Below are positions 37,172-63,500 of a stretch of DNA of 64,000 nucleotides, in pieces. The notes under the pieces are model-generated. The model had not been told where the DNA came from. It saw nothing but the letters and a program-made list of their open reading frames with translations, and searched no databases. The stretch lies in the NCBI GenBank assembly GCA_003427395.1, contig BFEA01000035.1:3805139-3869138 (forward strand), given 5' to 3'. Within the stretch, counting starts at the first letter, position 1; the number at the start of each line of letters is the position of its first letter. Source of the stretch: Chara braunii. Its lineage: Eukaryota > Plantae > Charophyceae. Made by a program: the position numbers and the translations under genes.

Positions 37172-39642
37172 CTTTTTTATTTTTTTTATTTTTTAAATGC
37201 TCCATCCAATGCTAGTGGTGCTGGTAAGAGCAGACACCGCTAGCACCTGAGGAGAGGTTCCATCAATTGGTGGGGAGCATCACCTGATGGAAACAGGTCC
37301 AGCGTCCCATATACATAATGAACTGGAGGATAACTAGACAAGAGTCTTGAGAGGTACCTGCCAGCATGGATTACTCTGGAACACAAAGGAGTGACTGAGC
37401 AGGTTAATAGAGAAAGTGAGATAACCTCTTCGCCCTGTGTCAGGCGCCAGATATCTACTATTACAACCTAATTTCTCCCTCCCCTAGACCTTTACTTATT
37501 CCTACTTCTGACCAAACCATTGTAATTCTACTATTGTTGTGGTTGTCTAGGGAAACATGTCTGGGAATTTATCGGAGCTCTTCATCGGAATGTTGGGCTC
37601 GATCTATAGCCAATCATGAAACCTGAGTTTGTAATCCTTATCGAGGATGCCACCTTCCTTCTTGTCCGCATTTTCCCTAGGCCATTCGATCTTGCGCTAT
37701 CCTGCCACCTCTTTCGCCGCCCAGCCAATCTACATAAAATGTTTGAATTTCATTGGTAATATCTGTTTTTTGTGTGAGGTGTTCCATTTTTTCCTGAATC
37801 CTTTTCCATTGCACCCTTACCTCTGTTTCAATAAATTGCCAAACTATGTCAGCCACTTCCCCATCCCCCATCCTGACTCCTTCCTGGTCGAATACACACC
37901 TCTTGCCCATAGCGTTCATACCACCATTTTTCTGGTAGTGGAAAAAAGGTTATTGGCAAAGCGAGATGCCTGTGGCCTCCTCCAATCTCCTAACAAGATT
38001 GCTTCTCATTTCCATGGTCATTCCTCATCAGTGCCTAGTTGTGACCAAATGCGGTCCCATCATCGCGACATTAGAACAACCCCTGAGCATTGGAGGAAGA
38101 TGTGTTCTAGTGTCTTACATATTTTGCGACTCAGGAACCCCCCATAACAGGATTTGCACCATGGAAGGGCCTACCCCCTCTGTTTCATGTTCGTTCTGTC
38201 GATGATCCATTTGTTTGTGGGAATACATCTATGCCTGTTTTTTCTCTGTAGGGAGGTAAATTTTGTCGGTCTCTCCTTTACCCTTTTGAACCACTGCCGA
38301 CCTCTAACTTGATCGTCACTTAAGTTTAGGTGTCTCTTCCACCTGTCCCCTAGCCCTGCCCGAACATCTACCATGGATCTGATCATTCTGTAGGTGGTCC
38401 CTACTGATAATTTAGCAAGTTGCACTGGTTGCCCAGTTCGGCCCCTCTCCCATTGTCATTCGAGCGAGTCCAGAGCTAGGCAGGAAATGGGGACTTCCGG
38501 TCGGTAAGCTCGCAATTGGGTCCTCCCCTCCTTGTGACTTTGTAGCACCCGGATCCGATATCATGATAGGTTGTTTTTTTCATCATGATGCCACTGGACT
38601 GACAGTATCTAACTAAGGTGTCATCCCCTCTTTTCTCAAATAAATTGATCATCGCTCCTTTCAGCCTGGTCTCCATTACTGCGTCTATTTGCAAGGGGAA
38701 TTCATTTACCCTCATAACCACCCAATCTTGTTCATGTAATAACGGTCCCTTCCTCAGGATTACGACCCAAGCTACGGGTATCGAAAATATTAGTTGTTCT
38801 AGTACGTTGCAAGCGTGGCGTAGGCAGGGCCTTAGTTATTGAGTTGACTTCCAATCATTGGTTACCTCATCCCATATGTCCCCCACCCGAAGAATCCCCT
38901 ATCTGACCCAAGCAGCCCAACGGGAGTCCGAGCTGCAGAAGAGCCGACCTTGCCTGTCCGTAATTGCATTGTTCCCAAACACGGGTTGGCGTAGGATTTC
39001 CCCAATTCGTTCGGGGGGCGGTCTATCAGAGATTGGCAACATCCTCCAGTTGGTGAAGAGGTTGGCCCAAAACTTGTTCCTTGCCAGATCTCGTCCCGCT
39101 GCTCCTCTGTCCCCTTCTGCTCGTGAGTGCGAGTTGGCTCGAGCCATATGAGCGGGTCCACTCTATGTTCGGTTGTTGGTGCAAGTCTACAAATTTGTTC
39201 TCTAGCCAGATCTGGCCATGAGGATTTTAATCCCACAATTAATATTTTAATACATTCGATTGATAAAGCCGTGGCTTGTAGAGAGGGGTCCAACAAGCCC
39301 AATCCTCGCCTGGTTTTAGGCTGGATCATCGTATCCCAAGCCACCCGGTTAATCACAATTTGTAGCTCTTGGTTCCCTCGCCAAAGAAAGCAAGTGTTTT
39401 TTTAGGGGCCTAACACTACTTTTACGAAGATGTCAAATAACCACTTTACACCAGATTAATGCCAACACTACATTGTTGATATCAGCACCCTTCCAAAAGT
39501 AGAGGTGTTTTTGTTTCTCCATTTCTGCATTTTTTGCAGCGTTGCCCTAGTAATTCATTTGTTTTTGCTTATTAATGGTCCTTGAGCAGAGAGTGTCATC
39601 CCCAGGACTCAGATCTCTTCCTCTAGGGGTCTCCAGTCCACT
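37172..39642 (-). mobile_element. 5'-truncated LINE (LINE-C): ORF2 C-terminal half, 3' UTR and poly(A)
   Basis: INRVAWDTMIQPKTRRGLGLLDP; KFTSLQRKNRHRCIPTNKWIID; conserved 3' motif; T-rich tract at 37172-37195. Confidence 0.85.
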
Positions 39643-42600
39643 TTGGGCGCGAGAGGCGAGCGTCAATTGTGAGAAAGAACGCTCTAGGAAGTGAGATTAT
39701 CCCGTTAGAAGAAGTGTTAGAGGCAAGCGTGCTCTGGACGATTGGCTTTTGTCTCCCTCATAGTTTCTGAGGCAGGAAAGGAAGGAACTAAACCTCGGCT
39801 GATGTCATCCAAAGCAGAGAGGGGTACTCGAGGATGTGGGAAAAATTGATTGTGCCAGCTTGCTGCTTCCTGAGAGTGCATGTATACCCACTGCAAGTCT
39901 CTTGTCAGTCCCTGTACCCTTGTGCCCAACTATTCGAACGGGGTTTAATGTTTTATTCGACAAGAAGTCGAGAGAGGGAGAATACCATGCTTGGGAGTAC
40001 AGTTAGCTTCAACTGGTTACGCGACTCGAGTCATAGTGGGAGTCGAGTGTTAACAAAAGCATGTATGCCAAGGTAAGATCATGGGCGTTATAGGTTTGTG
40101 TATCCATAGATCAACAGTGACAGTGAAGATGTTGTCATCGGTCGTCAGGTTCCTTTCCTCTTCGGCAAGCCGTCATTACTTAGTATGAGATAATTACGGC
40201 TTTGGTAGGGGACAACTAGTGGCCAACTCGCCTTGACCATCCAATCTTCAAGGCAATGTCGGACAACCAGGTGGCCTTGCTTTCCTGGCTAATTCCATTG
40301 ACCCAGTCAAGGGTCTGACTCTGGTTGACCGTGACCTGAAGGAGACTACCTAGGGCGTGAATGCCTTTGCCACCTCGATCTTCGATCCTGGTTCAAGTTC
40401 GAGAGCAACTGAATTGACCGAACTAGTTTTCGGTCCGTTTTGTGTCGTACTCGGGTCGGCCAATGATCGTTACAGCGGTGAACGAAAGGCGGTGAAGGTT
40501 TGGCAAAGAAGGGGGCTCAACGGATGATGTGAAGAACGATATAACTAATGCAGATAAGAAACCTGACTTTTTTTTTGCTGTTATTTTTGGATCTCTCCAC
40601 TTGCCTTGTCTACGCCTAATTGGAGTCGATTGCTTGCTAAATTCTATAACCCAATTTGATGAACATGTTGTGTGGAAGTTATGATTCTGCCAGCCCGGTA
40701 AGCTGGTCCGATCAGTTTTGTTGAAGTCACTCAATAAGCACCAGCAGTGGTAAAGTCGCCATAGCTCGACTAAATGAGTCTTGACTATCCACCAGCGGAA
40801 TTGACAAAATCTCAACTCGATGATGCTTTAATCGTTGGTAACTTGGTAGGTTCACTGTTTGAGGCAAGATAAACGAGAGTGCTATAATGATTTCACTTTC
40901 TTCTCTGATCGATGGGGAAAAAAATGGCTTCACTAAAGAGAATTGCTTACCTCCTTGCTAAGTTCCTCATCAACGGTGATTGATTGGTTCTGCTAAAACA
41001 ATTTTGACTTGTAAGTGATTTGAACTGACCACTCATACCGTGCTGAGAATAGAAGGGAGGGAACATGACTCATTCCTTCATGGTTATATAAGTGCATATA
41101 CATACATGTATATGTTTGTACATATGAAAACTTTCGTCAGTACAAAAATCAAAGTGGAAAGGGGGACGAGTACCAAGACTCCACTAGCTAGACAGACATG
41201 CTGCTATTGACAAATGGTTTGTAATTTCACGAAAGCCCTTTTCAGAACGAACCCCTACAATGTTCCTCATTATTAACGATCTTTGGGTCCTGTCACGTAT
41301 AGGGCATGGGCAACAAGTCGACCCGTTATCATCCCGCACACTGCGCACAGTACGCTGACAAAGACTGTTAGCAAAACCCCTGCGCTATGCATGAGTTTTA
41401 CAATCAAGATTCTCAAGTTGAATTTTGGTCAAGGTTGCGATTACTTCTGTCAGCATATAATAACTGCAAGCGACAGGGTCAAGTGACACTTTCGGCTTTC
41501 GCCATGCTATGAGTGGGAAAAGGGACTATGATCGGTATCATTCGTGGCATTACGAGATAAAACAGCGCCAGTGTCAATCTGTTAACTTGGTCTAGGAAAA
41601 CGGGTTCCCAGTAATTGCTCGTACTCGTTGGAAATTAATTGAAGAATGCTCGTGTAACATTTCCATGTTTACTCTGCTTATTCGATTGCTGCTCATTTGC
41701 CCAATCGATTACCCAAGGCTCAGCCCCGCTCGGCAATGTGCAAGGGCACACGCAGTTATGTTCAGTGGGGCTAAGCAGTGAGAGTCTAATCAATAAGTTG
41801 CCTGCAACGAGGGATTGGCGATGAACCAACTATATTGACACCGTCACTGGCGACAGTCTAGGGTAAGTTGAGGGAGTCTACCCCGAGGTTCAAAGGACTT
41901 AGGACGAATACCACCCTACTCTAATCTGCAGGGTCTAAGGGCAGAGTGATTTAGGATGAGAGAAATGGTAGGTAAAGACCTTCTCTCGGTCTCATGTACT
42001 CTTTACCGAGAGAAAGTGGAAGGTTGGGAAGATAATGTCGTTGATAACGTCCAGGGTTGCATAAGACTAATGAGAAAACAGGCACTGAGAATAGTAAAAG
42101 CCTAGGAACTCATTGAGTACGTTGTATACTTCTATGAGTTTGATGAAAAATTACACAGCACGTTCTCATCACTTGAGACCGTTGATCGAGCAAAAAAAAG
42201 TTGTCAGTGATTTGTAATGGGTCTATCATAGCGGTCGTAGCTCAGTTCAGCTTGATCCCCTTGTCTCGGCATCCCTTGGCAATCAGATGAGGGAGTGAGC
42301 ACTCAGCGTCATCAAGAGACAAATTGCTAGCTAAATACCGAGTGCATTGTCAAAAATTGAGGGGAGAAGTAACCAGTACGACTCACCCCTATTTGAGACA
42401 GTTAAATAGGCCAAAGAGAGCGTCAGAAAGTCGACAGTGAAAATGTCATTCTTGTGAAAACTCGATTCAGTCAATTATCAGTCAACAAGTACCCCTTCTT
42501 GACTCATAGTTTTCTTGGTGTTCAGACGCCCAGTGATCAATACTCGGCGGATTAGTGTCTCTGTATGTAATTGGTGAAAGTATTCAAACATCATCCAAAC

Positions 42601-43874
42601 AACATTCAAGCAACATTCAACCTGTTCTCGACAACGTTCATTTGTCCAAGTTACACAAGATTACTAGCCTGAGTCAAACGGTAATCAGTCATTTTTTTTG
42701 TCTTGCTCTAAAGGTCAGTTCTGTTCAGGCAGTTTTCCTACTCAGAGAAAATTGTGCCTGTTCTGACACTCAGCAACAACACATGAGTACAGTTCAGTCA
42801 TTCCTCGTCGGTGAGTCAGTTTTAACCAGTCTCAACAGGATCTCTTCTAAGGATGCCTTCCAATACCAATATGTCAGCGCCATTGGCTTCAGGCGAAGTG
42901 ATCTGTCAGTCTATGCTGTCCTCACTAAGTTTGCAGGCGGAACCATTCACGACCTAAGACTCTATGTGAAAAAGGGAAAGGAGGCTCATGAACACTTCGA
43001 TTCTGTTTGGCTCGCAGCGGCAAGGTATTTTGAGAAGAGGGAAGGAGAACTTGACGAGAGTGGTACGGAGCTGATCCGCAGCTTTGGGCCGAAGCTCTAT
43101 ACAGACTATCCTAAGCCTCTAGTTCCTTTTATTCTCATTGTCGGTTCTTACTGGGGTGACATGGTGGAGCTGGTCAAGAGGTACATTTCACCTGCAGTGA
43201 TCGATTATCAGGCAGTGATTGAACCATCAGACTTCCCGCATCTCGACCGAGAGGTTTTTTCTCGACCATATCTTCCCACACTCTGGGAGAAGTTTTGTGC
43301 TATGGCCGATTTTCGTATCATGGGACTTGGATGGAAGTGCGCGGAACTAGCAGGTTTCAGGTGACTCTACATTTAGTGGCCACAATCTCAAAGAGTACGG
43401 AGACATGGTTCAAGGCACAAGAAGCGCATAACAAAATGAGAGATTGAGTATGAGATTCTAAGGGATGAGTGAGGACTCTCGACTGGTGCTGGTCATGCTT
43501 CCTACATATGTACTTGCTAAGACTATTATGAGTTTTCATTCTTCCCTCATTTAACTTTGTCATTGCCTGAGTCAGTCAGTCTTGCTTTTTTGCTTTGCCT
43601 TGCTTGATGATTGCATTATCTGATGATTCTGCCACAGTTCTCAAAATCAGTAGACTAGAAAATTGATGCATGCATGGCACACCAGCATTTTATGGTTATT
43701 ATCTGTATGATTCCTTGCTGTTCCGAATCAAAATAAAAGATTCCTAAGAACGGGAATCGGCGAAGACTGCAATTGAAGGGTCTCGCTCGAAGCCGGACGC
43801 ACACAACAGGAAGGAATTTACTGTAATTAATTTATTTTATTTATTGCAAACATCATCCAAAACCCTGCGTGACA
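39643..43874 (+). repeat. 5' LTR, left-truncated, ending CCCTGCGTGACA
   Basis: Colinear with 59505-63737. Similarity starts abruptly at the junction with LINE-C. Confidence 0.9.
42783..43439 (+). pseudogene. LTR-encoded accessory ORF (consensus about 218 aa), domain copy 1
   Basis: ATG at 42783; open to 43364 here. The two downstream stops correspond to TGG and CAG in the 3' LTR copy. Homologous to four domains at 44.9-46.6 kb. Confidence 0.65.
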
Positions 43875-44838
43875 GCCTGCCCGAGCCCATGTTGGGGTGG
43901 GTGCCACGTTGTAAGCTTCTGGCCACTGCGGCGCGCCATCTGTCCGAAAGCATGGATATGTGTCCGCGTGTCTTCCTGTACTTGNNNNNNNNNNNNNNNN
44001 NNNNNNNNNNNNNNNNNNNNNNNNNNNNNNNNNNNNNNNNNNNNNNNNNNNNNNNNNNNNNNNNNNNNNNNNNNNNNNNNNNNNNNNNNNNNNNNNNNNN
44101 NNNNNNNNNNNNNNNNNNNNNNNNNNNNNNNNNNNNNNNNNNNNNNNNNNNNNNNNNNNNNNNNNNNNNNNNNNNNNNNNNNNNNNNNNNNNNNNNNNNN
44201 NNNNNNNNNNNNNNNNNNNNNNNNNNNNNNNNNNNNNNNNNNNNNNNNNNNNNNNNNNNNNNNNNNNNNNNNNNNNNNNNNNNNNNNNNNNNNNNNNNNN
44301 NNNNNNNNNNNNNNNNNNNNNNNNNNNNNNNNNNNNNNNNNNNNNNNNNNNNNNNNNNNNNNNNNNNNNNNNNNNNNNNNNNNNNNNNNNNNNNNNNNNN
44401 NNNNNNNNNNNNNNNNNNNNNNNNNNNNNNNNNNNNNNNNNNNNNNNNNNNNNNNNNNNNNNNNNNNNNNNNNNNNNNNNNNNNNNNNNNNNNNNNNNNN
44501 NNNNNNNNNNNNNNNNNNNNNNNNNNNNNNNNNNCTTTCTTTCATGATGAAAACAAAATTCTGAATCTTCTCATTCTGTAGATAAAAGTTTGCTCAAGCA
44601 AGTATTCAATCAATTTAACGGAAGATTTTAGTTAGCATTCTTGATAAAGTTTCTGAGCTCCTCACTTTTTATTTCCCTCCCTAATGTTTCAAGGACATGA
44701 TAAACTCATAAGGCATACTTGAGATCAAGCCTAATTTTCTCCAATCGGTAATATCAATCCCCTTCTCCAGTCCAGTGTGGTACCTCACACAAGGAAAGAT
44801 AAGACTCAGTTAGCAACTTAGGCTTTTTCAAAAGAATA

Positions 44839-47354
44839 ATGACTCAAGAAAAATTGCAAAATCGGTCTGGAAAATTCTGAAATTGTCAACAGTTCTCAAA
44901 GCCTAATCAAAACTATTTGCTGACCCAGGCTCGCTCCGAAACTAACTATTAAAGGGATATTCCCCTATCAGTATGAGCATTGTTGGGTCTATCGTTCTGG
45001 CAATTCGGCGATCACCGTAGTGCTGACTCGCTTCTTGGAGGGAGATATCTATGATATCCGCCCTTATGTCAAAAAGAGAGACTGTGACGATGGTGAGGCG
45101 TTTAACTGGTTATGGGGAATTGCAATCCAATCTCTTTATGATGAGAAGACAGATTTAATCAAGTAGAAGAAGAGGGTGGAATGGGGTCTAATGCAAGTAA
45201 CGTATGAGACTGTTACAATTCCTCCTATTCTTGACAGCTGTTGTGATGGGACTAATTCGCTGCCAATTTTCAGTATGGTACTGAAATGAGAAAGATGAAC
45301 TGGCGGTCATGAGATCTAAAGAGACTTCGGCAGAATAAATCATACAGAGAAGGTCGAAATTTGACAGAGGTTTAGACCCAAGCCAAAAGAAGGTCGAGTG
45401 CCTCCTGAAATCACTGAATGCTCTAAGTAAGAGGGAGGTGTTCTCATATGAGGTTGTCAGATATGAGATGGTCGAGAGTGGATGAGAGCAGGAACGATTA
45501 TATGTAATGACATTTTATTTCATAGACCTGGATACGTATGATGTGAGAATTTATGTCCCAAAAGAAAGAAGTACTGACGCAGTGTATGGAAGATGCTGGG
45601 GATTCGCTGAGGAGATTGTACTGAAAGAGAGAGAGAGAGAGACTTGAGAGGGAAAATAATGTCTCATTGGATCTACTCGATTTACTGTCTTTGGGATTTC
45701 CAACTCCTCCCTTACCTGATATTAACTTGTCAAGAAATAATTGGTTTGCAGTGGTTGAGTTTGCACTAAAGGTGGAAAGAGACCAAAGAACCAAATGAGT
45801 CGGCGCTATGTACCTTCAAGAGAGAAGCCCTGACTTAGACTGGTAAGAGAACATGAGGGGTTGAGTAAGGTTGAATGAGATAAACTATTAAATGCCCTCA
45901 ATTCTATAACGAGGAGAGTCGTAATTCCCTATGAGATCTTGAGGTATGAGGCTCTAAAGAATCCAGGGCGAGAGCAGGACAGTGTGTATGTTCTTACCTG
46001 TTATTTTATTGATCTTGATGAGTATGATATTGAGATTTATGTGCCGAGACAAAGATTTGAAGAGTGTAAAAAAGGTGCGTGCTGGCAGCGAGCATCGGAC
46101 ATTGTGCATGATGAAAAAAATAGGTTAGAACGAGAAGGAGAAACTTCAGCACCTATGTCAGACCTTTCATTAGGATACCATCTCCTCTTGTTGAAGGGCT
46201 TACCTTTTCAAAGGACAATTGGTCAGCCATGATAAATTTTGTATGGAAGGTGAAGAGGGTCCAAGAAGAATACTCTCAGTAGCAAGAATAACTATTGTGA
46301 GAGACAAACTTTATGAGGTAACAGGGTACGATAATCCCTTTGTAATCCTGAGGCATGAGACTTGCGGGAGAGGACATATAACGTTTTATATTCTTGTGGT
46401 TAAATTCCTGAACTCTGACAGTCTGGACGTGAGGGTTTACTCCTCAGCCTGCTTAGAGGAGGAAGTTGACTATTTGGAGTGTTTAAAAGGGGCGCGTATC
46501 AGTCTTGAACGAACAAAAGAGTGGCTAGAGAAGTTAAGAAGAAAAGTGACATGGGGTGTGAGAGTAAGTTAGTTTGAGAGACTCCCTGAGTTCTCAATTG
46601 CTGATGGATTTGAAGACAGTAGAGATTGGATGCCTCTGCTGGAGACTATTGTTGAGGTTGGTAAAGCAAGAGAGAAAGACTCTACTATGATGATAAAATC
46701 CCTGTTTTTGAGTACCTTCGAGCATAGGTTCAAAATTCATGATTATGTCCAACCTGAGATCTACCTTTCAGATGTTGTTTATGATGGTTAACAATGCCCG
46801 GTTTGGTTGAACCACTAACATTTGAGATTGTGTTGGAAGGAAGAATAGTCAAGGTAGAAGGGACTCTTCAGATCTCTGACAGAAACCTCTCTACCTTGGA
46901 TGAGCTTGATTCTTGCAACCTTTCCTTGATCAAATGAGAGATTCTGCCCTGAGAGCTGTCACTGACCAGAGTGAGATCAACTATTTATTAAAGGTGGTGA
47001 AAGTGGGGACAACTGAGAGAGTATCATACCATTCCTCTAGGGAACGAGTTTCTCTTGCTCAACAACGGTGTCAACGGACAGTAAACAATGCAATGTGACT
47101 ATGAGACTATAGACTTGACGCGATACTTTATGATCCGGGGTACTGTAAGAGGATATAATAGCAGATTGAGTAGGGATGATGAAAGAAAGCTGATTGAGGA
47201 TTATATCAGAAGACTGAGAAGGATTGCATTTCCATTGATTACTACCCAGTTTATTATTGCCTATACGCTCTATATACAAAATTCTCAAGGGGTACAGCAA
47301 ACAAGGAAAGAGAGAAACGAACCTGTATCTCTTGCAAGAAGAGTAAGAGACTGA
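44839..47354 (+). pseudogene. Accessory coding region upstream of gag containing four tandem paralogous domains
   Basis: Translated segments at about 44951-45190, 45435-45690, 45920-46190 and 46330-46560 align with each other and with the LTR ORF. Interrupted by stops and frameshifts. Confidence 0.7.
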
Positions 47355-47414: not shown

Positions 47415-48590
47415 ATGGTCAAGATGGCAGGACGAGGGAGACCGAGTTCTTCTGCAGTGACTAATGAGGAGACTCTGGTAGGTATTATACGAGAACCGGT
47501 AGAGAGAGTTGATACTATAAACGGAGGGTCTGACAGAGGGCCTCAGGTAAATGATTTCTTGGATGAGTATGAATTATTTGGGTTCAGTTATGGCTGTACA
47601 GACAAGCAACGACTTAAGCACGTTCTATCTTATTGTGACACTGACTCGAGGTTGGTTGTTCAAGAGTTGATGGAAGAGGCTACTACATGGGAAGAGGTCA
47701 AGGAAAAAATGAAAAGAGAATTTGGGAAAGACTCTGTTCCAACTACTACCAAGGATCTCCTCAATATCAGAAGAGCTAAGTGTGACACTTTCAATATTTT
47801 TCTCCAGACCTTTATCAGAACGACCAGAAGAATTCCATACTTGGATGAGGCTCAGAGATGTTATATTTTCTTGACTAATTTTACTGATAATGAAAGACAG
47901 ACTGTTCTTAATCAAGCTCAACATTATCCTCTCAGATGGCATGAAATGGTTGCAATTGTCAGAACTCTACCTACGGTTTCTCACAAGAAATGGTCACTGG
48001 ATCAGATCAGTACATTAGCTAAAGACTAGGAGACTGAGAATGGTATGAACAGAGGGAACAATCTGAGTGCTGAAAATATTATTCAACGGGTTATGGCCAA
48101 CTATATGCCTGCCAATCATGCTGTGAATGAGAAAAGGAAGAAAAAGGCAGGAAGGGATGATGATGAGGATGATGATGATGATGATGATGAAAATTATGGT
48201 AAAAGAGGAGATTCTTCCAGATCCAGAAAAAATGGAGGGAATGGTAGAAAAAAGAACAGAGAGAAAAGGAAGAACGACGAGCGACCAAGGAAGAGTTTTG
48301 TTTGTTATTATTGTGGTGAAGGAGGTCACACTACCACTTACTGTAAGCCATTGGAAGATGATGTGAAGAGTGGGGTGACAAAGAAGGATGCAATGAGTCA
48401 TGTTTGTGATAGTTCATGGAACAAATTAGATCCCAGACATCCTCGAGGTATGCGACTTCTTGCCTTTAAGCATGATGAAAAAATGAAGAAAAAAAAGAAA
48501 ATAAAGACTAATGTGAATGTTCGTACTTTCATGGGCGAACTGCCTAAGAGACTCGTACAAGAAACTGATGATTCATTTGCCTTAATTTGA
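47415..48590 (+). pseudogene. gag: gag with CCHC zinc knuckle (one in-frame TAG at 48027)
   Basis: ORFs 47415-48029 and 48045-48590 are in the same frame. Capsid-like segment DFLDEYE...TWEEVKEKMKREF; knuckle CYYCGEGGHTTTYC. Confidence 0.85.
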
Positions 48591-48591
48591 G

Positions 48592-51500
48592 TTGTCTCTA
48601 CGGACTCTCTCTTTAGTAGACGACGTGACTGATGAGATCTTTCCAGGCAGACTTTTGTTAGGAGAAAACTCTACTTCTCAGATTTTCTCTGAGTTGGCAG
48701 TATTTTCTCCTAGCAGGCCTACTTGTTCGGCTAACATGATGTCATTTGAAGGTGATCTACCACAAAAACTCGTTATGGAACCCGATACAGTGATTGAGGA
48801 AGTGAGGAATGTTCATGCACATTTAACACCTCAAATGGTAGAGGAAAAAAAAAATAAAAAAAAATCGATGAGGCTCTGATTGAAATTCTTGATGATAAAG
48901 GACCAGAACCTTTACCAAAGAGAAGTGAGCAAGGGAAGAAGATAAAATTTCTACTCAAGAGTGAACTAGAGGATGAACTGTAATTACTGATGTAATTACT
49001 AAGATGCTGGAAGAAACAGAGGTGACGTTGGCCTTCAAGGAGACAATGACACTAACGCCTAAACTGAGTGAGGAATTGAAGAAATCAATTGAGAAGAAGA
49101 GAAAGTTAATTACTTGGGATCAGTCTTTTCTGGTCAGGTTAACAGAGCCTTGTCTGGATGTAAGATGAGATTCGTAACTATGGGTTGTGACTATTTAACG
49201 ATCTATATTAATCAAGTGAAAATTTGAGCATTAGTGAACTCTGGGGCAGAGATGATACTTATATCTTAGAAGGCAATGGAGGCCTGTGGTCTCACTATTG
49301 ATAGGCCTGCGATGCAAACGCTAAGCAATATTGCTGGAGAGTTCTTCGTGGCTGGATTTATTGACGATCTGTCATTTAGAGTTGGGTTGATGGCAGTCGA
49401 GCTATTGAGATTCGTGATATAAGACTTGGATCATGACTGCATTCTCGGCACTCCGTTGTTACATAGGATGAAGGTTGTCCAGTTCTTCAGTCATGAAGGG
49501 TCATCCAAGATTAGTCTGCAAGACCCGGAAGTTGCACAAGAGCAGACTTTCGTGGTCTGCCCGACTGACCATCACAAGCACCAGATATTAGTCAACTCAA
49601 TTAGAAGGGAAGAGTCCGCTGAGAGGGGAAAAAATAAACAGGAATTTAAGGAGGAAGTCTCAGTTGATATCAATCAGATTTCAAAGATGGTAAAAGCCCT
49701 TAGTAAACTCAAAGACGAAGATTGACAGATTAAGGCATTTAAGAAGGGTGTTGAGACTGCCAAGGGTGAAAAAATGGAATTAAAGTTTGCAAACTCATCA
49801 TTTTTTAAGAAAATAGCCACTGGGTCAAAAAAAAAAAAAAAACCCAAGGGGGTGAAGAAGAACCCAGTGGCAGTCCTATTAGAAAATGATTATGACGAGA
49901 CACTGAAAAAAGAAAGGAGAATTATTAAGGCATTAATGAAGTCTGCAAAGAGGTGGTCCTCGCAAATTCACACAGGATTTTCCGTGTCCCATGCTACTTG
50001 GGTTAGAGCTAAAGCTTGTGTTGCTTTCGACTACTGGAATAGAGTCATCAGGGAAAGGTTTGACACGATGAAGATAGGCTTTGATCAATTTATTCTGCCT
50101 AAAGAGAAGGAATATATCTTCAAGGTTTGTCAAGAGTTCTCTGGTGCATTCTCTTTTAATGATGAAGAAAGTGGGCGGTTGGATGTGGATATGATTAAAA
50201 GACAAAAAAATTGACAATTGATCACATCCCATGGAATGACAGACCAACTAAGTATGCCCTGAAAGAAGAGGCAGAAGTGGTAAAGTACCTTGACCAGAAG
50301 ATTGCATCTAATGTTGTTGAACCTGCTGATGGACCATATGCTAACCACTGGTTTTGCTTTTGGAAACCAAGGGGTGGATTGAGATGGATACAAAATCTTC
50401 AGAAGCTCAACTAAGTAACGGTACGTGATGCAGATAGTCTTCCTAATGCTAATCTCATTTCTAAATCCTTTGTTGGTCGATGCATTTATTCTTTAATTGA
50501 TCTATGATCAGTTTCTCATTGATCCTACTAGTCGACCGATGACTGTCATGCACACGCCAAGGGGTCTCATTCAGATGTGTGTGGTGCCTCAAGGCTGGAC
50601 TGATGGTGTGGCAGTGGTTCAAAGAGATATGATCAAAGTCATGCATGATATCTCGCCAGAGATAACTTGCCCATACATTGATGATAATCCTGTAAAAGGG
50701 TCTATGGTAAGAGATGAGACTTTGGTTAGGGATGACGTCATAAAGTTTGTCTGGGAGCATGCTGAAAAAGTAAAGTTGGTCGTAGAGAGACTTCAGAAGT
50801 ATAATCTGACTGTCAGTGGACCAAAGTCCCTTCTCTTCCAAGCCGAGGTCACTATTTTGGGCTTAAGATATTTCTCCAAGAGTAGGAACCCTAACCCCTA
50901 GAAGATAGACAAAATTTTGAACTGGCGTCTGCCCCTCAAGCGGGTGACAGACGTCAGAAGTATTTTGGGTGGTTGTGGGTTCTGGAGGATTTTCATACCT
51001 CATTTTGCTACCCTTGCGGAGCCACTGAGGGAGATGGTGAGACAATGAGCTGACTTATCTTAGACTGAGAAAAGACAGACTACTACAGAAACTTTACAGG
51101 AAAAATTAAAAGATGGTGGCGTAGTGTTGGGAGTGTCATACTATGACGATGAAGAGGGTAGACCCTTCATAATTGAGGCAGATGCAAGGTCAGTTGTTTT
51201 AGGTGGTGTGCTCATACAGAAAGATGAGAATGGTAGGGAAAACCCCCCTAAGGTTTAAGAGTAGGACTCTCAACTCCACAGAAAGAGGCTACACCCAGTT
51301 TAGGAAAAAACTACTGGTCCTTATCCACTGTCTCAGGTGTTTCAGACACTATATCCTTGGAAGACGATTCATTACGAGAATTGATGCATCTGTTGTTATT
51401 GGTGCAGTAAAAAAACACCAACAAGCAAATCCAACAGTAAGCAGATGGATAACCTTCATTTGGACTTTTGATTTTGTCGTGGAAAAGATTCCAACTTAGA

Positions 51501-53228
51501 AGAACAGGGCAGATGGCCTAAGTCGAATTGAATTGAGGAAATATGAAGAAGAAAAAAATATTGAAGGAACTATTGAAGAATCTTCTTATATTGATAATTT
51601 TCTGGATGAGAAAGATAAAGAAGATTATGAAGTACCAAACTCTTATAAGTGGAGTTTATGGCCTGAAGAAAGAAATAGCTAGGGATAAATCCCTGATGCC
51701 TATGTCTATGAATCAATTATCGAAAAAGAAGAGGAGGAGGAACAAAATGACTGGCATGCAAAAATCAATGCAGCAGTTGTAGCAGTCCATGAGACAAGGG
51801 AAAGTTCGGGCTTAAAGAATAAAGAAAAATGTGAGAAGAAAGAGGAAGAGATATCATTTATCTTTGAAGAGTACGATGAAATTTTACAAGAGATTAGGAA
51901 AAAAATTGAGAAAGAACGGTTAAAGGAATATTATTGCAAGAATTTAAGGAAAAAGTTCAGACTAAAGCGAGGTCACCTCTTCGTGGATGGCAAGGGAGGA
52001 CTACCTCCACTAAGAGTAGTTTGTGGCAAAGAAAGGCAGCTGAAGATAATTGCTGCTTTACACGAGGGGGTTGCTGGTGGCCATAGAGCTGCTGAAGCAA
52101 CCTACTCTAAGACAGTTAAACTTCACTTCTGGTCTGACATAAAAGTTATGATTTATAGATTCTGTAAGTCATGTGTGTTATGTCAGAAGAGGTCCACTAC
52201 AAGGATGATTGAACCTTTGTTTCCTACTATTTTGGTAGAACCGGGAACAGAGTTCATTTGGATCTCGTCACCATGCCACTAGGCAAAGGAGGGATGAGAT
52301 ACATATTGAACATGAAAGATATTTTTTTTTGTTATGTTGAGACAAAGACTCTGAGAAGGAAGACAGCCGAGGAGGTGGTTGACTGGATAGAGGAAGTCTA
52401 TCTCAGGTCCCCCTTCATTAGAGAGTTTGTCTCAGACAGAGAGTTTGAATTCAGAAATGAGATTGTAAGAAGAACCACTCTCAAACTGAAGCTAAAATTC
52501 GATATGTAACTACTTACCATCCTCAAGCAAACGCGCCGATTGAGAGAGGTTACAGTACTCTGAAAGATTCATTGGCCAAGTGATGTGAAGAAAATCTCAG
52601 TAACTGGTCAAAAGTATTAAGAGTTGTTGTTTATGCTGACAACATAACTGTCAAGAGGACTACTGGTTATGCTCCATTCACTCTGTGGTATGGTCGATAT
52701 GCTACTTTGCCTATTGAGAACATAGTCAAGACATGGTCAAGTTAGAAGAGTGACAGAGACTATTCTATTCCAGAGCTCCTTCAGATCAAAATGAGACAAA
52801 TATTAGAAGTTGATCAAGCAGTGATGGATGTTGCAGAGAGAATGACAGTCAGCAGATTATCAGAGGAAGAGAGATGGAACAAGAAAAGATATACAAAAAA
52901 AGAGAAACTGAAAGTTCGTGACGTTGTCCTTCTGTTTGATAGTTCTCTTGAGACTCAATTGACTAAACGATTGTAGCCCAGATGGCTTGATCCCTACAGA
53001 ATTACAGGTGAAGCAGAAGGCAAGGTTTATGAAATATCTAAGATGGATGACTCAAGAGTCCACGACATGATATCAGGGTCAAGACTTCGTAAGTTTATCT
53101 TCAGAGATCCTGACCTAGTTCCCACAATGACCAGGAAGAAAGGAAAGAGAGGACAGTCATCCAGTAAGAGGCAACTCCAGAAAATCGAGAGTAAGTACAA
53201 TGAAACAATGAAAAAGGCTAAAACTTGA
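48592..53228 (+). pseudogene. pol: pol: protease, RT, RNase H and integrase, frameshifted
   Basis: ALVNSGAE (49228); PQGW and PYIDD (50674); FIIEADA...GGVLIQ and FRHYILG; LHEGVAGGH...CKSCVLCQ; HLDLV, SDREFEF, HPQANAPIER; PRWLDPY. Confidence 0.92.
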
Positions 53229-54079
53229 TAGACATTGACTAGCCCTGCATGATCAGTCCAGTGAGTTAATTTTCAGTATGACAGATTTTGACACGAGATA
53301 ATTGAGAAAATCTTCCAGATGATTTATGTTTGTCTGTGCATTGTATTTTTCTCTAGAGACAATGACATTAGAGTTATCGATGCAGAGCCACTGTCGATCT
53401 CTGAGTATCTTACGTCTGAGCAGGGAATAACTTTACAGAGAAAAGAGTGATGATAGATCATCCCTCAGAATATTAATGTGGTATCCAGTCCATCGGATTC
53501 ATGGCTGTGGCATATCAAAAAGTAATCAATATTGATCCCTCACAATTAAGAGAGTCTGACAGGATCAAGAGAGTTCGGCTCTATTTGATCAGAGAGTTAT
53601 CAGTAGAGGGACTTCTTGTCGGCTAAGCTGCCTGTCTGAGAAAGTTATCAGGAAGGTGGGCATAAAGAGGTTCAGCCCTGTCTGACTAGAGAGTTGTCAG
53701 CTGGGGGACCTCGTGCTTTTTGGGTAAGTTGCCTACCTTCAGTTTCAGACGAGGGAAGAGACCTCTCTGGAACCAGTATCTCTATGCTATCTTGAGGCTG
53801 ACGGGAGGTCTCTTGGAAATACTCTCAGATGAGGGAAGGGACCTCGTTGGGGTCAGCACGTTGTGTTCCTTAAGGTTGAAGGGAGGTTTCAAGGGAATAC
53901 ATTGTCGGTTGCTACTTATTGTTGTTCAGTGCCTCTTGAGACTGAAGGGACGTGTTTTAAAAAATGTTTGTTCTGTTATCTGGGGCATGGATTGTCTGAT
54001 TGTGGGCATGAGATGTTTACTTGACCGTCTGTGCTTGGGATTTTTCTTCACTAACTTAAAGATGCATTGATTGTCGGGG

Positions 54080-55821: not shown

Positions 55822-57545
55822 AGTGAAAGAAAAATCGAAGAGGGTAACTTGAAGAGACGCTTGGTGATGGGAAAAAAAACTGGGGCACTACTACAAGAGA
55901 AAAAAGAGTGTACTACTAAAGAAGGAAGAAGCGGCTATGGACCATGCAGGAAAAAAACGTTGCAAGAGAAGAAGAAGAATAACGTATATGCTGCGATGAA
56001 CGCGAACTAGTACAGCACATGATTGTCACGTAAGCTTTCTTATGAGTACACTGAGGAAGAATGAGAATCCTAGGCCATGCGCTGTTTCATTCTCTTCAAT
56101 CGACGCATCTCGACCCAACGGGGACGCTGGGTGGGGGTTTGGTATCATGTCGGAGGGCGCGGTGTCCCAACCCTCCTTTGTGTACCCGATTCCTGCTCGG
56201 TGTAAGTACCCTGCCCCAGCTTCTACGGCTCGTTGGACGTGTTCTGAATGTCCACAGGCCTGATACCAGAGCTGTACCTCGATGTGGGCCAGTCCAAGTG
56301 GTGTTTGCCCTGGCAAAAGGGTGCGCCATAGGACTTTCCATTGGTCCACGCAGGCTCGGCACCCTGCTGTACAGCAGAGCACTACCGGCCTGTAACCGTG
56401 GTAACCGTCGGGCTTGCCCTGGGACGCGAAGGTAGAGGGACGGGCGCAGTCTTTTCTACTGCACGCCGAGTGCCCCTCTGCCAGGTTATGGGCTAGATGC
56501 TCAAAGCTATTGTAGCTGTCAGGCAAAATGGGACCAGCTAGGTACCCCAGACACCCACTCCTCTTATGCCGTCTGCATGCTTTCGTTACAGGCCAGATAC
56601 TAGTCTGTAGGGCCTCGCGGAACTGACCCGGTTGCTGGGCTTCCTTGTGGTGCCGCGTAGGCTCGATCCCTTGCCTTTCAGTGGGTCTGCAGCTGAAGTG
56701 ACCGTCGGGCTTGGCAAGGTCCACTCAGCCGTGCACCAAGGCCTGAGGTTCGTGATCTGGGCAAGGTACAGAGGAAAAGAAAAATAAAATAAAAAGGAAA
56801 GAAGAAAAGAGAAGAAACGGGAAAAGGGGAAAGTCGTGTGTCGAGTCTGATTCTCGAGACAGTTCGCTATTTTCGCCTGAAGTGAATACGTGACCTTAAG
56901 TTGTAGTGTCACTGTGACTTTTCCTTTCCCTTTGTTTCGATTTTAGTTTTATCCTTGTTATTATTATTATTATTACTATTATCATTATTACTAAGTTCTT
57001 TTCAGGTATTTTCAGCCCGTCATTTCCCGGGAAGGCTGATAGCTCGAATTTCGAGCTCAGTTACAGTTTGGTCGCCTAGACAAGTCCGATCCCTCGCATG
57101 TCACTCTGTGGCTGAGTCATCTGGTTGAGCTGCGCAGCAGAACCCCAAAATAGGGGCACCCGAGGCCGCTTCGGTAGGAAGCTCATCACCCCCTATAGGA
57201 GGTCATGAAACCCCTCCTTGCCATCGGACGCGGGTACCCGATAATGATAGGCCGATGCTGCGTTTTAAAAGGAGAAATGTGACTGTCAGGATCCCGTTAT
57301 GGGACCGCCTCTTTGAACCGCGGTCACGTCTCAGGGAATTAGTGGCTAAAGGTAGTGTGAGAATTCGATTTGAGGTCTGACCGTTGGATTTCGGCCTCAT
57401 GCTACTAGATTTTCTTTAAAATTTTATCCCTGATTATTCTATGCTTTATTTGTTTGAGTTTTAAAATTACCTATTGAGGAAAATTCGGGAACCCAACTTG
57501 AGTATCTCGTTTAGAAAACAGGTATGTTAGGAGGGCTATTTTTAT

Positions 57546-57562: not shown

Positions 57563-60500
57563 TATGACTACGGGCCTTGCCTGCGTGCACCTCATGCGCT
57601 GAAAGTCGGAATGCTGCTGGGTGCTAGTGGCTAGAGGGTATCCTGCCCGTGCCTGCGCCCCTGGGTACATGCTATTATGAGCCAGCTGGCCGGTACCATG
57701 TAGAGCCTGTTGAGTGGAGCTTGGCTATGGAGTGTCGAGGTGGGCTATGCGGCTATAGGCCAAGGTACATGAGGTACTCTTGGATGTGGGAGCGTGGGGA
57801 CGAACAACGTGCTCTGGTTGAGACTATACTGACCTATGGGAAATCCACATGAGAAGTGAGACTAAAAATCAATGTCTACGGTCATCGTGAACAGGAAATA
57901 AGGAGAGACCAGGGACTGTAGGAGGCAATTACTGAGGCTCGTAACAGGGTGGAGCGAAGGTGCAGGCGAGACGGGTTGACTGCGAACATGCGGGTAACGG
58001 TCACCTACCATGAGGATGACTCGTCGACTGGCACCACGACTAGGGAGGTGCAACACAACGAGAGGGACTCTAAAGGAGAGTCAGAGATGAGCGATCAGGA
58101 GGCAGATGTCCAGTCCTGGCATGGACAGGATCAGATCCACTGAAACCACCCGCTGGCTGGACCAGTGGAGGACGGGCCTGAGGCCAGTTCGGCCCGACAT
58201 AGAGTGAAGTCAGCTGAGGTTGGACCATCGGGGATGCGGCACTAGTAGAATGCGAGATCGCGCGAGGTGGTTACAGATACTTGGTCTATGCGTGGCACGC
58301 TGAGACCGAGAGGCAAGGGCACGAGACAAAGAGAGAGAGAGAGAGAGAAGGTCGACGCTCAGGCGCAACGCTGGGGGATCAGCTCAACGCTCCAGTGCAT
58401 CGCTTGAGGGACTAGTCCTGTACGCTCGTGCTCATCGTCAGGGCAGTCAGTTATGAGTTCACTCTCGAGCGCGCCCGACGGGGCGAGCCCTTTGGAAGAG
58501 AGTTGACATTATTCTTTCTCCCCTCTCGAACGAGTAACGCCTGGTCATATCACGTGCAATAATGGAGGGCGCCGTCTCGCATAAGCGAGTAGCCGACACA
58601 ACAGTCTTCTCGAGCGAACAGGGGGGGAGGAGTCATCGCGAGGGAACGATGTGTGGGCAATGCATGGTTAGACTGACGGTTTCCTAGTCATGGAGATGGC
58701 GTAATGAAGTGTACGGGGAGAAGCGGTCTAACTAGACTCTTATGGGCGAAGAGAAAGCGTGCAGAGTGATTAACAGATCTGTTCGGAAGCCTTTGTTGGG
58801 CTCATTCGGCTAGCATCTTCCTCATTGACGACTCTCAGCTCATCAGACATAGCTTCAGGTACTAGTTATCTGACAGAAGGCGTGACGAGGGAGGATCGTT
58901 GCGCGTCTTCCATTCAACTCCTCGGCATTCTGGGTCACTTCTTGCTATCATGCCAAGGTTAACAAGGGTGAAATACTTGCCAAGACCAAGTGCGTGTGTA
59001 TTTGTGTGAAGGAGGAAGTGTGCCCGCGGGTGTGCGTGCGGAGCAAAACAACGCAATATCAGTTTGGTGGTGCCACCTACCTGTGCTAGCAAAGGCGGTT
59101 ACTTCTTGCCCTTGTGTCGGAAGACGAAGCATGCACCCTTGGCGGAGCGTACGCGAGGTTTCTTGGTTGATGTAAACAGTAATTTCTTTTGAGTTATGCT
59201 CGCAGCTCTCATAAGGTATTAATTATGTCACAGTTAAGTGGCCATGAGCAGATGGTTGGGGTGCAGCGTGCTGCCTACACGTGGGAAAATTTGGCAGGTA
59301 CCTAACCATAGCGCGATCAGCATAGAAGTAGAGTTTGCAGGGGGGTTACAGACCAAGAGTGGCATGGGCTTAGGAGTGCTCAACGCGTGTGTGCATGACC
59401 TACAAGGGGACTCGCTGCTCAAGCTAACGTTTTTCCCACCTCAAATATGTCACTAGTATCAGTGAGTTGTACTGTTTTCCACATCCGTTAAGGACAGTCG
59501 AGCCTTGGGCGCGAGAGGCGAGCGTCAATTGTGAGAAAGAATGCTCTAGGAAGTGAGATTATTCCGTTAGAAGAAGTATTAGAGGCAAGCGTGCTCTGGA
59601 CGATTGGCTTCTGTCTCCTTCATAGTTTCTGAGGCAGGAAAGGAAGGAATTAAACCTCGGCTGATGTCATCCAAAGCAGAGAGGGGTACTCGAGGATGTG
59701 GGGAGAATTGATTGTGTCAGCTTGCTGCTTCCTGAGAGTGCATGTATGCCCACTGCAAGTCTCTTGTCCGTCCCTGTACCCTTGTGCCCAACTTTTCGAA
59801 CGGGGTTTAATGTTTTAGTCAACAAGAAGTCGAGAGGGGGAGAATACCATGCTTGGGAGTACAGTTAGCTTCAACTGGTTACGAGACTCGAGTCATAGTG
59901 GGAGTCGAGTGTTAACGAAAGCATGTATGCCGAGGTAAGCTCATGGGTGCCATAGGTTTGTGTATCCATAGATCAATAGTGACGGTGAAGATGATGTCAT
60001 CGGTCGTCAGGTTCCTTTCCTCTTCGGTAAGCCGTCATCACTGAGTATGAGACAGTTACGGCTTTGGTGGGGGACAACTAGTGGCCAACTCGCCTTGACC
60101 ATCCAATCTTCAAGGCAACGTCGGACAACCTGGTGGCCTTGCTTTCCTGACTAATTCCATTGACCCAGTCAAGGGTCTGACTCTGGTTGACCGTGACCTC
60201 AATGATGGGTCGTGAAGACTACCTAGGGCGTGAATGCCTTTGCCACCTCGATCTTCGAGCCTGATTCAAGTTGTAGAGCAACTGAATTGGCCGAACTAGT
60301 TTTTGGTCCGTTTTTTGTCGTACTCGGGTCGACCAATGATCGTTACAGCGATGAACGAAAGGCGGTGAAGGTTTGGCAAAGAAGGGGGCTCAATGGATGA
60401 TGTGAAGAACGATATAACTGATGCAGATAAGAAACCTGACTTTTCTTTTGCTGTTATTTTTGGATCTCTCCACTTGCCTTGTCTACGCCTAATTGGAGTC

Positions 60501-63500
60501 GATTGCTTGCTAAATTCTGTAACCCAATTTGATGGACATGCTGTGTGGAAGTTATGATTCTGCCAGCCCGGTAAGCTGGTCCGATCAGTTTTGTTGAAGT
60601 CACTCAATAAGCACCAGCAGTGGTAAAGTACGCCATAGCTCGACTAAATGAGTCTTGACTATCCACCAGTGGAATTAACAAAATCTCAACTCGATGATGT
60701 TCTAATCGTTGGTAACTTGGTAGGTTCACTGTTTGAGGCAAGATAAACGAGAGTGCTATAATGATTTCACTTTATTCTCTGATCGATGGGGGGGAAAATG
60801 GCTTCACTGAAGAGAATTGCTTACCTCCTTGCTAAGTTCCTCCTCAACGATGATTCATTGGTTCGGGTAAGACAATATTGACTTGTAAGTGATTTGAACT
60901 GACCAATCATACCACGCTGAGAAAAAAAGGGAGTGAACATGACTCATTCCTTCATGGTTACATAAGTGCATATACATACATGTATATGTTTGTACATATG
61001 AAAGCTTTCGTCAGTACAAAAATCAGAGTGGAAAGGGGGACAAGTACCAAGACTCCACTAGCTAGACAGACATGCTGCTATTGACAAATGGTTTGTAATT
61101 TCACGAAAGCCCTTTTCAGAACGAACCCCTACAATGTTCCTCATTATTAACAATCTTTGGGTCTTGTCACGTAAAGGGCACGGGTAACAAGTCGACCCGT
61201 CAGCATCCCGCACAGTACGTTGACAAAGATTGTTAGCAAAACCCCTGCGCTATGCATGAGTTGAGTGACAATCAAGATTCTCAAGTTGAATTCTAGTCAA
61301 GGTTGCGATTACTTCTGTCACCATATAATGACTGCACGTGACAGGGTTAAGTGACACTTTCAGCTTTCGCCGTGCTATGAGTGGGGAAAAGGACTATGAT
61401 CGGTATCATTCGTGGCATTACGAGATAAACCATCGCCAGTGTCAATCCGTTAACTTGGTCTAGGAAAACGGGTTCCCAGTAATTGCTCATACTCGCGGGA
61501 AATTAACTGAAGAATGCTCGTGTAACATTTTCATGTTTACTCTGCTTATTCGCTTGCTGCTCATTTGCCCAGTCCATTACCCAAGGCTCAACCCCGCTCA
61601 GCAATGTGCAAGGGCACACACAATTATGTTCAGTGGGGCTCAACAGTAAGAGTCTAATCAATAAGTTGCCTGCAACGAGGGACTGGCAATAGACCAACTA
61701 TATTGAAACAGTCACTGACGACAATTTGGGGTATGTTGAGGGAGTCTACCCCGAGGTTCAGAGGACTGAGGACGAATACCACCCTACTCTAATTTGCAGG
61801 GTCTAAGGGCGGATCGATTTAGGATGAGAGAAATGGTAGGTAAAGACCTACCCTCGGTCTCATGTACTCGTTACCGAGAGAAAGTGGAAGGTTGGGAAGA
61901 GAATACCATTGATAACGTTCAGGGTTGCATAAGACTAATGAGAAAACAGACACTGAGAATAGTAAAAGTCCATGAGCTCATTGAGTACGTCGTATACTTC
62001 TATGGTTTGATGAAAAATTACACAACACGTTCTCATCATTTGAGACTGTTGATCGAGCAAAAAGGAGTTGTCAGTGATTTGTAATGGGTCTATCATAGCG
62101 GTCGTAGCTCAGTTCTGCTTAATCCCCTTGTCTCGGCATCCCTCGGGAATCAGATGAGGGAGTGAGCACTCAGCGTCATCAAGGGACAAATTGCTAACTA
62201 AGTACCCAGTGCATTGTTAGAAATTGAGGAGAGAAGTAACAAGCACGACTCACCCCTATTTGAGACAGTTAAACAGGCCAAAGAGAGCGTCTGAAAGTCG
62301 GCAGTGAAAGTGTCATTCTTGTGAAAACGCAATTCAACCAATTCTCAATCAACAAGTACCCCTTCTTGACTCATAGTTTTCTCGGTGTTCTGACGCCCAG
62401 TGATCAATACTCAGCGGATTAGTGTCTCACTATCTAATTGGTGACAGTATTCAAACATCGTCCAAGCAGCATTCAAGCAACATTCAACCTGTTCTCGACA
62501 ATGTTCATTCTTCCAAGTTACACAGGATTACTACCCAGAGTCAAATGGTAATCAATTATTTTTTTGGTCTTGCTCTAAAGGTTAGTTCTGTTCAGACAAT
62601 TTTCCTACTCAGAGAAAATTGTGCCTGTTCCGACACTCAGCAACACATGAGTACAGTTCAGTCATTCCTCGTCGGTGAGTCAGTTTTAACCAGTCTCAAC
62701 AGGATCTTTTCTAAGGATGCCTTCCAATACCAATATGTCGGCGTCATTGGCTTCAGGCGAAGTGACCTGTTAGTCTATGTTGTCCTTACTAAGTTTGCAG
62801 GCGGAACCATTCACGACCTAGGACTCTATGTGAAAAAGGGGAAGGAGACTCATGAGCACTTCGATTCTGTTTGACTCGCAACGACAAGGTGTCTTGAGGA
62901 AAGGGAAGGAGAACTTGACGAGAGTGGTACGAAGCTGATCCGCAGCTTTGAGCCGAAGCTCTATAGAGAAATGCTAAGCCTCCGATTCCTTTTATTCTCA
63001 TTGACGGTTCTTACTAGAGTGACCTGGTGGAGCTGGCCAAGAGGTACATTTCACCTACAATGATCGATCATCAGGCAGTGACTGAACTATGGGACTTCCT
63101 GCATCTCAGACGAGGGGTTTTCTCTCGACCATATCTTCCCACACTCTGGGAGCAGTTTTGTGCTATGGTCGATTTCCGTATCATGGGATTTGGATGGAAG
63201 TGCTCGGAACTAGCAGGTTTCAGGTGGCTCTACATTCAGAGGCCACAACCTCAAAGAGTACGGAGATATGGTTTATGGCACAAGAAGCGCACAACAAAAT
63301 GAGAGATTGAGTATGAGATTTTGAGGGATGAGTGAGGACTCTCGACTGGTGCTGCCCATGCTTCCTACATGTGCACTTCCTGAGACTATTATGAGATATC
63401 ATTCTTCCCTTATTTAACTTTGTCATTGTCTGAGTCAATCAGTCTTGCTTCTTTGCTTTGCCTTGCTTGATGATTGTATTCTCTGATGATTCTGCCACAG

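Follow-up and report, generated by a model that had tools for sequence, protein, structure and literature searches.

A family of small paralogous genes in the long terminal repeat and upstream of gag in a decayed Ty3/Gypsy retrotransposon of Chara braunii

The subject of this report is a decayed long terminal repeat (LTR) retrotransposon of the Ty3/Gypsy type in Chara braunii, contained in a stretch of 64,000 nucleotides (nt) that is here called the window (GenBank assembly GCA_003427395.1, contig BFEA01000035.1, positions 3,805,139 to 3,869,138 of the forward strand). The element carries five diverged paralogues of one small gene, c1 to c5, of which c1 lies in the LTR and c2 to c5 are packed head to tail upstream of gag. 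Extra open reading frames (ORFs) upstream of gag are of a known kind; the array of paralogous short ORFs appears to be a new variant, and its products appear to constitute a new protein family. Our leading, though tentative, interpretation draws on analogy with other systems and holds that the five small genes may encode non-enzymatic accessory proteins, which would bind host factors and aid escape from silencing or restriction. The genomic copy in the window is now decayed and dead, and such a function would belong to its active relatives.

Five alignable units had been proposed in a sequence-only reading of the window, and all five were found where that reading had placed them, on the + strand. 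Across the window's six frames the motif F-x6-D-[ILV]-[RE]-x-Y occurs five times (at 42930, 45032, 45519, 46005 and 46405), in the units only; the right-hand repeat has a further copy of c1, in which one motif residue is lost. When pairwise local scores were compared with 2000 shuffles, six of the ten pairs were matched by none and the remaining four were equalled by 1, 2, 11 and 30 shuffles, the weakest pair being c1/c4 (30). The units thus stand up to the shuffled controls that the same reading had called for. When each unit in turn was left out of the profile, the other four recovered it (E = 6e-6, 2e-9, 2e-18, 2e-16 and 6e-4). A profile built from eight short outside proteins matches the window units over as many as 125 residues, at E values of 2e-16 to 6e-28; since these proteins were themselves found by using the units, this profile fixes the extent of the domain more than it proves paralogy a second time. 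The outside homologues show a domain of about 125-135 amino acids (aa), in which a proline-rich stretch is followed by a conserved Trp and a final helix, instead of the 70-90 aa originally estimated. Only F, D and Y are invariant across the 13 aligned rows. The description of the DNA as barely alignable is correct for the other unit pairs, for which DNA comparison gave no match, but not for c3 and c4, which align at 71-74% identity over 86 nt.

Among 1.84 billion representative sequences, the five-unit profile found nine proteins at E ≤ 0.001, eight of which are family members; the ninth (P0009, a laminin-G protein, E = 1e-3) was discarded as a chance match. A cluster look-up plus a second search yielded three more relatives. 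A full-domain profile matched 5 of 951 candidates (two of them new) and 1 of 7997 longer candidates, and with c1 alone as the query none of 70 candidates matched. The three named homologues are Chara braunii gene models (P0001, P0002 and P0004), with 62-69% identity over the domain. They fuse the domain with reverse transcriptase (RT) and other repeat-derived pieces and look like chimeric gene predictions, which may explain why annotation of the family is missing. Pfam and PDB sequence searches returned nothing significant and the best PHROGs match had an E value of 0.044, in agreement with the earlier impression that this is not a known family; no member was found in viral contigs or phage genomes, and an Atlas search with c1 gave no usable match. 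A short matching stretch at one metagenome locus (L001), in a frame unlike that of the family, was discarded. The Atlas feature score of P0006, one of the outside homologues, was 0.75. In the literature searched, which did not extend to the Chara genome paper, we found no paper describing the family by title or abstract, and no array of paralogous short ORFs with one member in the LTR and four before gag. The protein family appears to be undescribed; the Chara genome paper, its supplements or repeat libraries may mention such ORFs.

The units are separate small genes: their outside homologues stand alone, and the ends of these proteins map to start and stop codons in the window. P0003, P0005, P0006, P0010, P0011 and P0012, on contigs of 0.5-1.5 kb, each form a protein of their own with a length of 131-164 aa; P0007 (121 aa) and P0008 (81 aa) are partial. 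A polyprotein, which the sequence-only reading had offered as one of two possibilities, is rejected on this coincidence of homologue ends with the window's own start and stop codons, and the ORFs prove to be tightly packed, which that reading had missed. Thus Met 1 of P0003 corresponds to the ATG at 45309, and its end lies at most one codon from the stop at 45796; the same protein also sets the start of c4 at most one codon from the ATG at 45795, and there the c3 stop and this ATG share bases in the tetramer ATGA. Residue 1 of P0010 corresponds to 46279, overlapping the c4 stop at 46280, in a distant alignment and at a site that now has no ATG. The c2 stop lies about 10-20 nt from the c3 start, and 2 nt separate the c5 stop from the start of a sixth frame, ORF6. 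The homologue ends mapped on the window hence give a nearly spacer-free leader in the order c2, c3, c4, c5, ORF6, gag.

All of these genes lie on the + strand, and c1 (42783..43364) is an intact ORF of 193 aa in the LTR, with the domain at residues 1-135 and a poorly modelled tail; it is 62-69% identical to portions of two Chara braunii gene models. Its second copy begins at 62647 in the right repeat and has a stop at 62872 and a frameshift near 62970. In the window copy c2 to c5 all bear stops, and c3 and c4 have one frameshift each. The start of c2 (44939..45298) probably lies slightly upstream; this unit matches the outside profile at E = 5.8e-28, its nearest outside relative is P0005 (38%), and it has an internal stop at 45164. 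In one DNA run the array has many-fold contig coverage, and most of the contig depth (354 of 377, from 16 contigs) is free of that stop, from which it follows that the family is abundant and the c2 stop private to the window copy. The c3 gene (45309..45798) has stops at 45336 and 45483 and a frameshift near a GA run at about 45640, whereas c4 (45795..46282) has two early stops and a frameshift near 46145. The last unit, c5 (46279..46791), matches the outside profile at E = 2.2e-16 and has a C-terminal extension, a mapped start without ATG and an internal stop at 46570. ORF6 (46794..47354) is a non-paralogous decayed frame of 186 codons with five stops, for which there was no Pfam match and no significant PDB sequence match.

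Two weak candidates would bring the number of paralogues to seven. One lies just past pol (53268..53381, + strand; hhalign E = 0.009); the other, possibly a very distant paralogue, is a conserved decayed ORF (57742..58197, + strand, counted as a unit over 57742-58050; hhalign E = 0.06), which is 52% identical to the N-terminus of P0004 and has a contig depth of 430-1070 as against 0-58 in its flanks. Each aligns in register with none of 25 shuffles as good, and both were chosen by eye among five candidates. Three other places proposed for a unit were rejected, since 10 of 25 shuffles did equally well for 43428, 24 for the tail of c5 and 13 for ORF6. Single-contig joints in DNA run X1 connect 45725 to 46214 (skipping 488 nt, one c3/c4 period) and 46282 to 44961 (the c4 end to c2-like sequence); these hint that unit number or order differs among copies, or that there are additional paralogues.

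The paralogues have diverged under selection at the protein level. Between c3 and c4, amino-acid identity is 50% over 78 aligned residues, with a proportion of synonymous differences (pS) of 0.81, a proportion of non-synonymous differences (pN) of 0.30 and a pN/pS of 0.37 (bootstrap 0.27-0.50), and a frame-blind DNA alignment gives identities of 0.57, 0.70 and 0.43 at codon positions 1, 2 and 3; pS exceeds pN in all ten unit pairs. Silent sites of c3 and c4 are thus saturated, yet half of the residues are kept, which bears out the proposal of old duplications under protein-level selection. In contrast, the two copies of c1 in the repeats show a pS of 0.070 and a pN of 0.057, as expected for decay following insertion. 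In a 16-row tree c1 groups with c2 (98/96) and c3 with c4 (92/91), each pair being joined by outside relatives, and c5 is a long branch without placement.

AlphaFold was run on the 13-row alignment for P0006, and a second model was made for c1. The P0006 model (predicted local distance difference test, pLDDT, 81.5; predicted template modelling score, pTM, 0.77) consists of a strand, a helix, a three-stranded meander, a long helix, a strand, a proline-rich linker and two short helices. The c1 model repeats this order of strands and helices, with a low-confidence tail, and the family is therefore predicted to share one small alpha/beta fold. Foldseek searches with both models against the PDB and viral libraries gave no match at E ≤ 0.001. 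In a wide fold search each model reached a best Z score of 5.0, a value shared by GNAT, gelsolin/villin and Crl; typical best Z scores of unmatched models are 7-8, and scores at this level are evidence neither of kinship nor of a new fold. The proteins are soluble and near-neutral (net charge -4 to +3), without a transmembrane segment (highest 19-residue hydropathy 1.55); no enzyme profile matched the family and no catalytic constellation is evident in it. The few invariant residues, the lack of an enzyme profile match and the soluble near-neutral character make it likely that the proteins are not enzymes.

The element is a Ty3/Gypsy LTR retrotransposon by its gag, protease, RT, RNase H (RH) and integrase (INT) order together with its long direct repeats. 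The decayed gag-pol (47415..53229, + strand) contains gag, zinc knuckle, protease, RT, RH and INT in this order; the corresponding Pfam order is PF03732 (below cut-off), PF13650, PF00078, PF17917 and PF17921. Around it lie direct repeats of about 4.25 kb, both on the + strand: the left repeat (39634..43873, aligned span to 43878), whose 5′ part is apparently missing, and the right repeat (59495..63737, aligned span to 63741), which holds the second, decayed copy of c1. The aligned spans are 92.3% identical over 4261 columns, with a Kimura two-parameter distance of 0.073 (215 transitions, 77 transversions). With c1 in both repeats and c2 to c5 before gag, the suggestion of an accessory cassette common to the LTR and the internal region is upheld. 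At more than 24 kb the element counts as giant; a Gypsy family of Chara braunii with elements of 20-30 kb is reported in the genome paper of that alga.

The ends of the element are provisional, because the left repeat, which has TGACA at its end, lacks TG at its start, and no target-site duplication, tRNA-type primer site, tRNA gene or self-primer was found. A purine tract followed by TGTCA (at 57284) occurs at 57264..57290 on the + strand and is a possible true start of the 3′ LTR; in this bin a widely shared segment stops and contig depth drops from 3711 to 8, which suggests a real LTR of about 6.45 kb and a truncated left LTR. An assembly gap of 550 N (43985..44534), beginning 111 nt past the left repeat, separates that repeat from the array, and the left repeat is therefore possibly not the cognate 5′ LTR. 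The link between c1 and c2 to c5 is unaffected by the gap, since the sequence is unbroken from the array through gag-pol to the right repeat, where c1 is present again. The c1 segment of the LTR is flanked by an exact 15-nt direct repeat (42585-42599 and 43847-43861), the first copy of which precedes the c1 start and lies in CA-rich sequence; it may be a mark of how c1 got into the LTR.

How might such an array have arisen and worked? It is very probable that an ancestral gene was duplicated in tandem, with one copy ending up in the LTR, where reverse transcription would copy it to both ends. We can suggest only with some hesitation that a single long leader RNA would serve for c2 to c5 and ORF6, with translation by termination-reinitiation or leaky scanning and not as a polyprotein; spliced subgenomic RNAs would be an alternative. 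Stop-start overlaps of the AUGA type promote reinitiation in caliciviruses, and the SART1 retrotransposon also uses reinitiation (PMC10275272). Both resemble c3/c4 in that stop and start codons overlap, and both differ in coupling two ORFs, whereas the array has up to five ORFs before gag and one clean ATGA junction. It is quite plausible, though short of probable, that the paralogues would be binding modules with differing partners, as in viral accessory gene families, and that a varied set would be kept because changing host defence favours variety. A set of binding proteins is the most economical reading because selected, soluble copies lie outside a complete gag-pol and show no catalytic constellation; the preference for host partners comes from the analogy with VANC proteins and viral accessory families. 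A bolder version, which we regard as rather doubtful, would be a virus-like polycistronic accessory region: a gene accordion in which five to seven paralogues of a protein without a close known fold, their number differing from copy to copy, are expressed by serial stop-start reinitiation before gag, and whose products would act as decoys or suppressors against charophyte silencing.

Several observations weigh against host-directed accessory proteins read from one leader RNA. A clean ATGA is present at only one of four junctions, and the tetramer is common locally (59 in 5.1 kb), so that translational coupling is something we infer. RNA was examined in three raw runs of one study (X5, X6 and X7), of which 6-13% each was read, over 44535-53600. 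The libraries are stranded, as judged by an rRNA-like piece in pol that is described below (830 versus 3 in X6). Hardly any signal falls on the array in X5 and X7, that in X6 is almost equal on both strands (42.4 versus 35.5), and on 53600-59400 the X6 signal tracks DNA depth (Spearman 0.91, 30 bins); being near-symmetric and tracking DNA depth, it is best read as DNA carry-over. The RNA check proposed at the outset therefore came out negative, with no stranded sense transcript of c2 to c5 in any of the three runs. A look-up of RNA data containing 44540-47400 listed none, a result that counts neither for nor against expression. Furthermore, the protein-guided codon alignment somewhat inflates the contrast between pN and pS, and the paralogue classes look old and stable, which fits fixed replication roles as well as it fits an arms race. 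Finally, no long tandem array was found in 38000-64000, unlike in VANDAL transposons; a 38-nt motif occurs there in three copies at a spacing of about 70 nt, near 54861-55041.

Fixed replication roles form the basis of another explanation, in which the proteins would be parts of the element's own replication, such as factors of the particle or its traffic, with Gag, integrase or one another as binding partners. Output in a fixed ratio by coupled translation could then serve, for example, the movement of particles in very large cells. The tight packing immediately 5′ of gag on the same strand, the old and stable paralogue classes and the gelsolin/villin-like domains among the top fold rows (Z 4.7-5.0) are in line with this idea, but these fold scores do not rise above background, the proteins show no membrane-spanning segment, and gag-pol already has the full standard set of domains; we consider it unlikely. 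Still less probable, in our judgement at most a slight prospect, is that the array is cargo, that is, a nested element or captured DNA of no use to the retrotransposon. The link between left repeat and array is unproven given the assembly gap and the missing primer site, and no sense RNA was seen. However, the array continues without a gap into gag-pol and on to the right repeat with c1, its contig depth is similar in magnitude to that of gag-pol (16-75 contigs at the positions listed), no terminal repeats were found around it, and the genes bear the protein-level selection described above.

The other explanations start from known folds. PC4/Sub1 (PF02229), GNAT (PF00583) and EEP (PF03372) proteins each have a partial likeness to the family in motif spacing or fold topology, with neither sequence-profile support nor a significant structural score. 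Descent from GNAT acetyltransferases with strong divergence, whether the proteins are still active or dead, strikes us as improbable; they would then acetylate or bind chromatin or host proteins and so keep the element open. GNAT chains came first in both wide searches (Z 5.0, root-mean-square deviation (rmsd) 3.5, 82 aligned; Z 5.0, rmsd 5.0, 93 aligned) and make up about half of the best 50 rows, and the order of strands and helices is GNAT-like; a Z of 5 nonetheless falls under the 7-8 usual for unmatched models and is shared with gelsolin and Crl. GNAT proteins bind acetyl-CoA through motif A after strand 4, with the pattern [QR]xxGx[GA]. This pattern occurs within the domain in none of 12 sequences, its one match being in the c1 tail, outside the domain, and a profile comparison with 22 E. 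coli GNAT domains gave P = 0.1%, with 18 of 60 shuffles equally good. The PC4/Sub1 lead of the sequence-only reading, under which the proteins would bind single-stranded DNA or RNA and act as chaperones while a very long genome is reverse-transcribed, fared poorly and now has little chance of being right. The spacing of the family motif presumably equals that of PC4, as quoted in that reading, and the models do predict a three-stranded meander followed by a long helix. Yet none of the 13 aligned members scores against Pfam PF02229 (0/13), for which the control, phage T5.115, scores 32.1 bits, and there is no PDB sequence match; a profile comparison with seven phage PC4 proteins, limited in that all belong to one distant subfamily, gave P = 0.4%, out of register and with 12 of 60 shuffles as good, and a test of the hairpin only was equalled by 2 of 60 shuffles, again out of register. 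In PC4 one more strand separates the hairpin from the C-terminal helix; this strand is absent from both models, where strand 49-57 leads to helix 64-86 (P0006) and strand 55-63 to helix 72-92 (c1). The net charges of -4 to +3 also argue against such a binder, and do not favour the nucleic-acid binding that had been suggested more generally. Least probable of all is a catalytically dead EEP nuclease fragment, for example from a long interspersed nuclear element, that was kept as a nucleic-acid or protein binder. Nine of ten Atlas structure rows for P0006 are EEP-family clusters (template modelling score by query 0.52-0.59) and TDP2 is among the weak Foldseek rows, but every Atlas row is below the naming bar and is based on a model with a pLDDT of 0.56; a shallow profile comparison with three E. 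coli domains gave P = 0.1%, and the domain is about half of EEP family length. The wide fold searches, which used better models, placed no PC4, Whirly or EEP chain among the best 50 rows of either, though such chains may rank lower.

Returning to accessory proteins directed at the host, the closest parallels in layout are plant Ty3/Gypsy elements, in which Ogre, Retand, Athila and the ORF0 of Tekay/Retrosat2 provide accessory ORFs before gag to which no function is assigned (PMC6317226, PMC11728184, PMC3485330). Such elements share with the present one accessory ORFs before gag, large size and long LTRs. They differ in that their extra ORFs are mostly one or two in number and unrelated (one or two in Ogre, PMC6431247), whereas here there are five paralogues, one of them in the LTR; the array ORFs, at 130-190 codons, fall under the 250-codon cut-off of the main survey of extra ORFs. 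The Tat clade (Ogre, Retand) has an additional RNase H (aRH) between RH and INT (PMC6317226, PMC4408406). The parallel with Ogre/Tat elements drawn at the outset accordingly holds for the layout but not for domain content: in three-frame Pfam scans of this decayed copy only the RT-linked RNase H scored, the RH-INT spacer being E/K-rich, and the plant mobile domain/Transposase_28 gave no Pfam match in the 13 aligned members or the scanned frames. Burro elements of planarians also exceed 24 kb and have a standard gag-pol; the available text of their description, unlike the present case, mentions no paralogous array of small ORFs (PMC6431247). VANC proteins of VANDAL transposons are transposon-encoded anti-silencing proteins (PMC10398659; PMC13547354) and offer a working model of accessory proteins that counter silencing. 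They are, however, MAIN-related and belong to DNA transposons with tandem-repeat targets, and no such domain or array was found in the element.

What the extra ORFs in plant retrotransposons do has been asked for a long time, and ORFs of fewer than 250 codons were skipped in the main survey. The array supplies a short, soluble and confidently modelled family with intact natural members that are open to expression and assay. If the interpretation as accessory genes is true, a retrotransposon would be expanding such genes as large viruses do, with a single eukaryotic RNA expressing several of them, and their partners in binding would indicate host defences in a lineage near the land plants.

Some further features of the window were recorded. 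Within pol, in an open frame of the protease/RT interval, an antisense piece of 89 nt (49950-50038) is 75% identical to E. coli 23S rRNA, without an Rfam match; thousands of stranded RNA reads match it and continue into other sequence. It is probably an organellar fragment, whose source we take to be the plastid. Downstream of pol, two segments (53988-54569 and 56122-56509) reach contig depths of 9,000-35,000 as against about 1,000, and are thus common to very many copies and possible conserved cis elements. Next to the assembly gap, 44535-44629 also occurs in another repeat of much higher abundance (contig depth 154,581 in its bin), whose reads extend into other sequence, and the X5 and X7 RNA reads over it are stranded. 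Elsewhere, a unit of about 1175 nt is repeated in tandem three to four times in 7557-12257 (86-91% identity, interrupted by a gap), and at 34869-35468 lies a second decayed Gypsy-type RT fragment, unlike the RT of the element itself and resembling the kind that is fused into the Chara braunii gene models.

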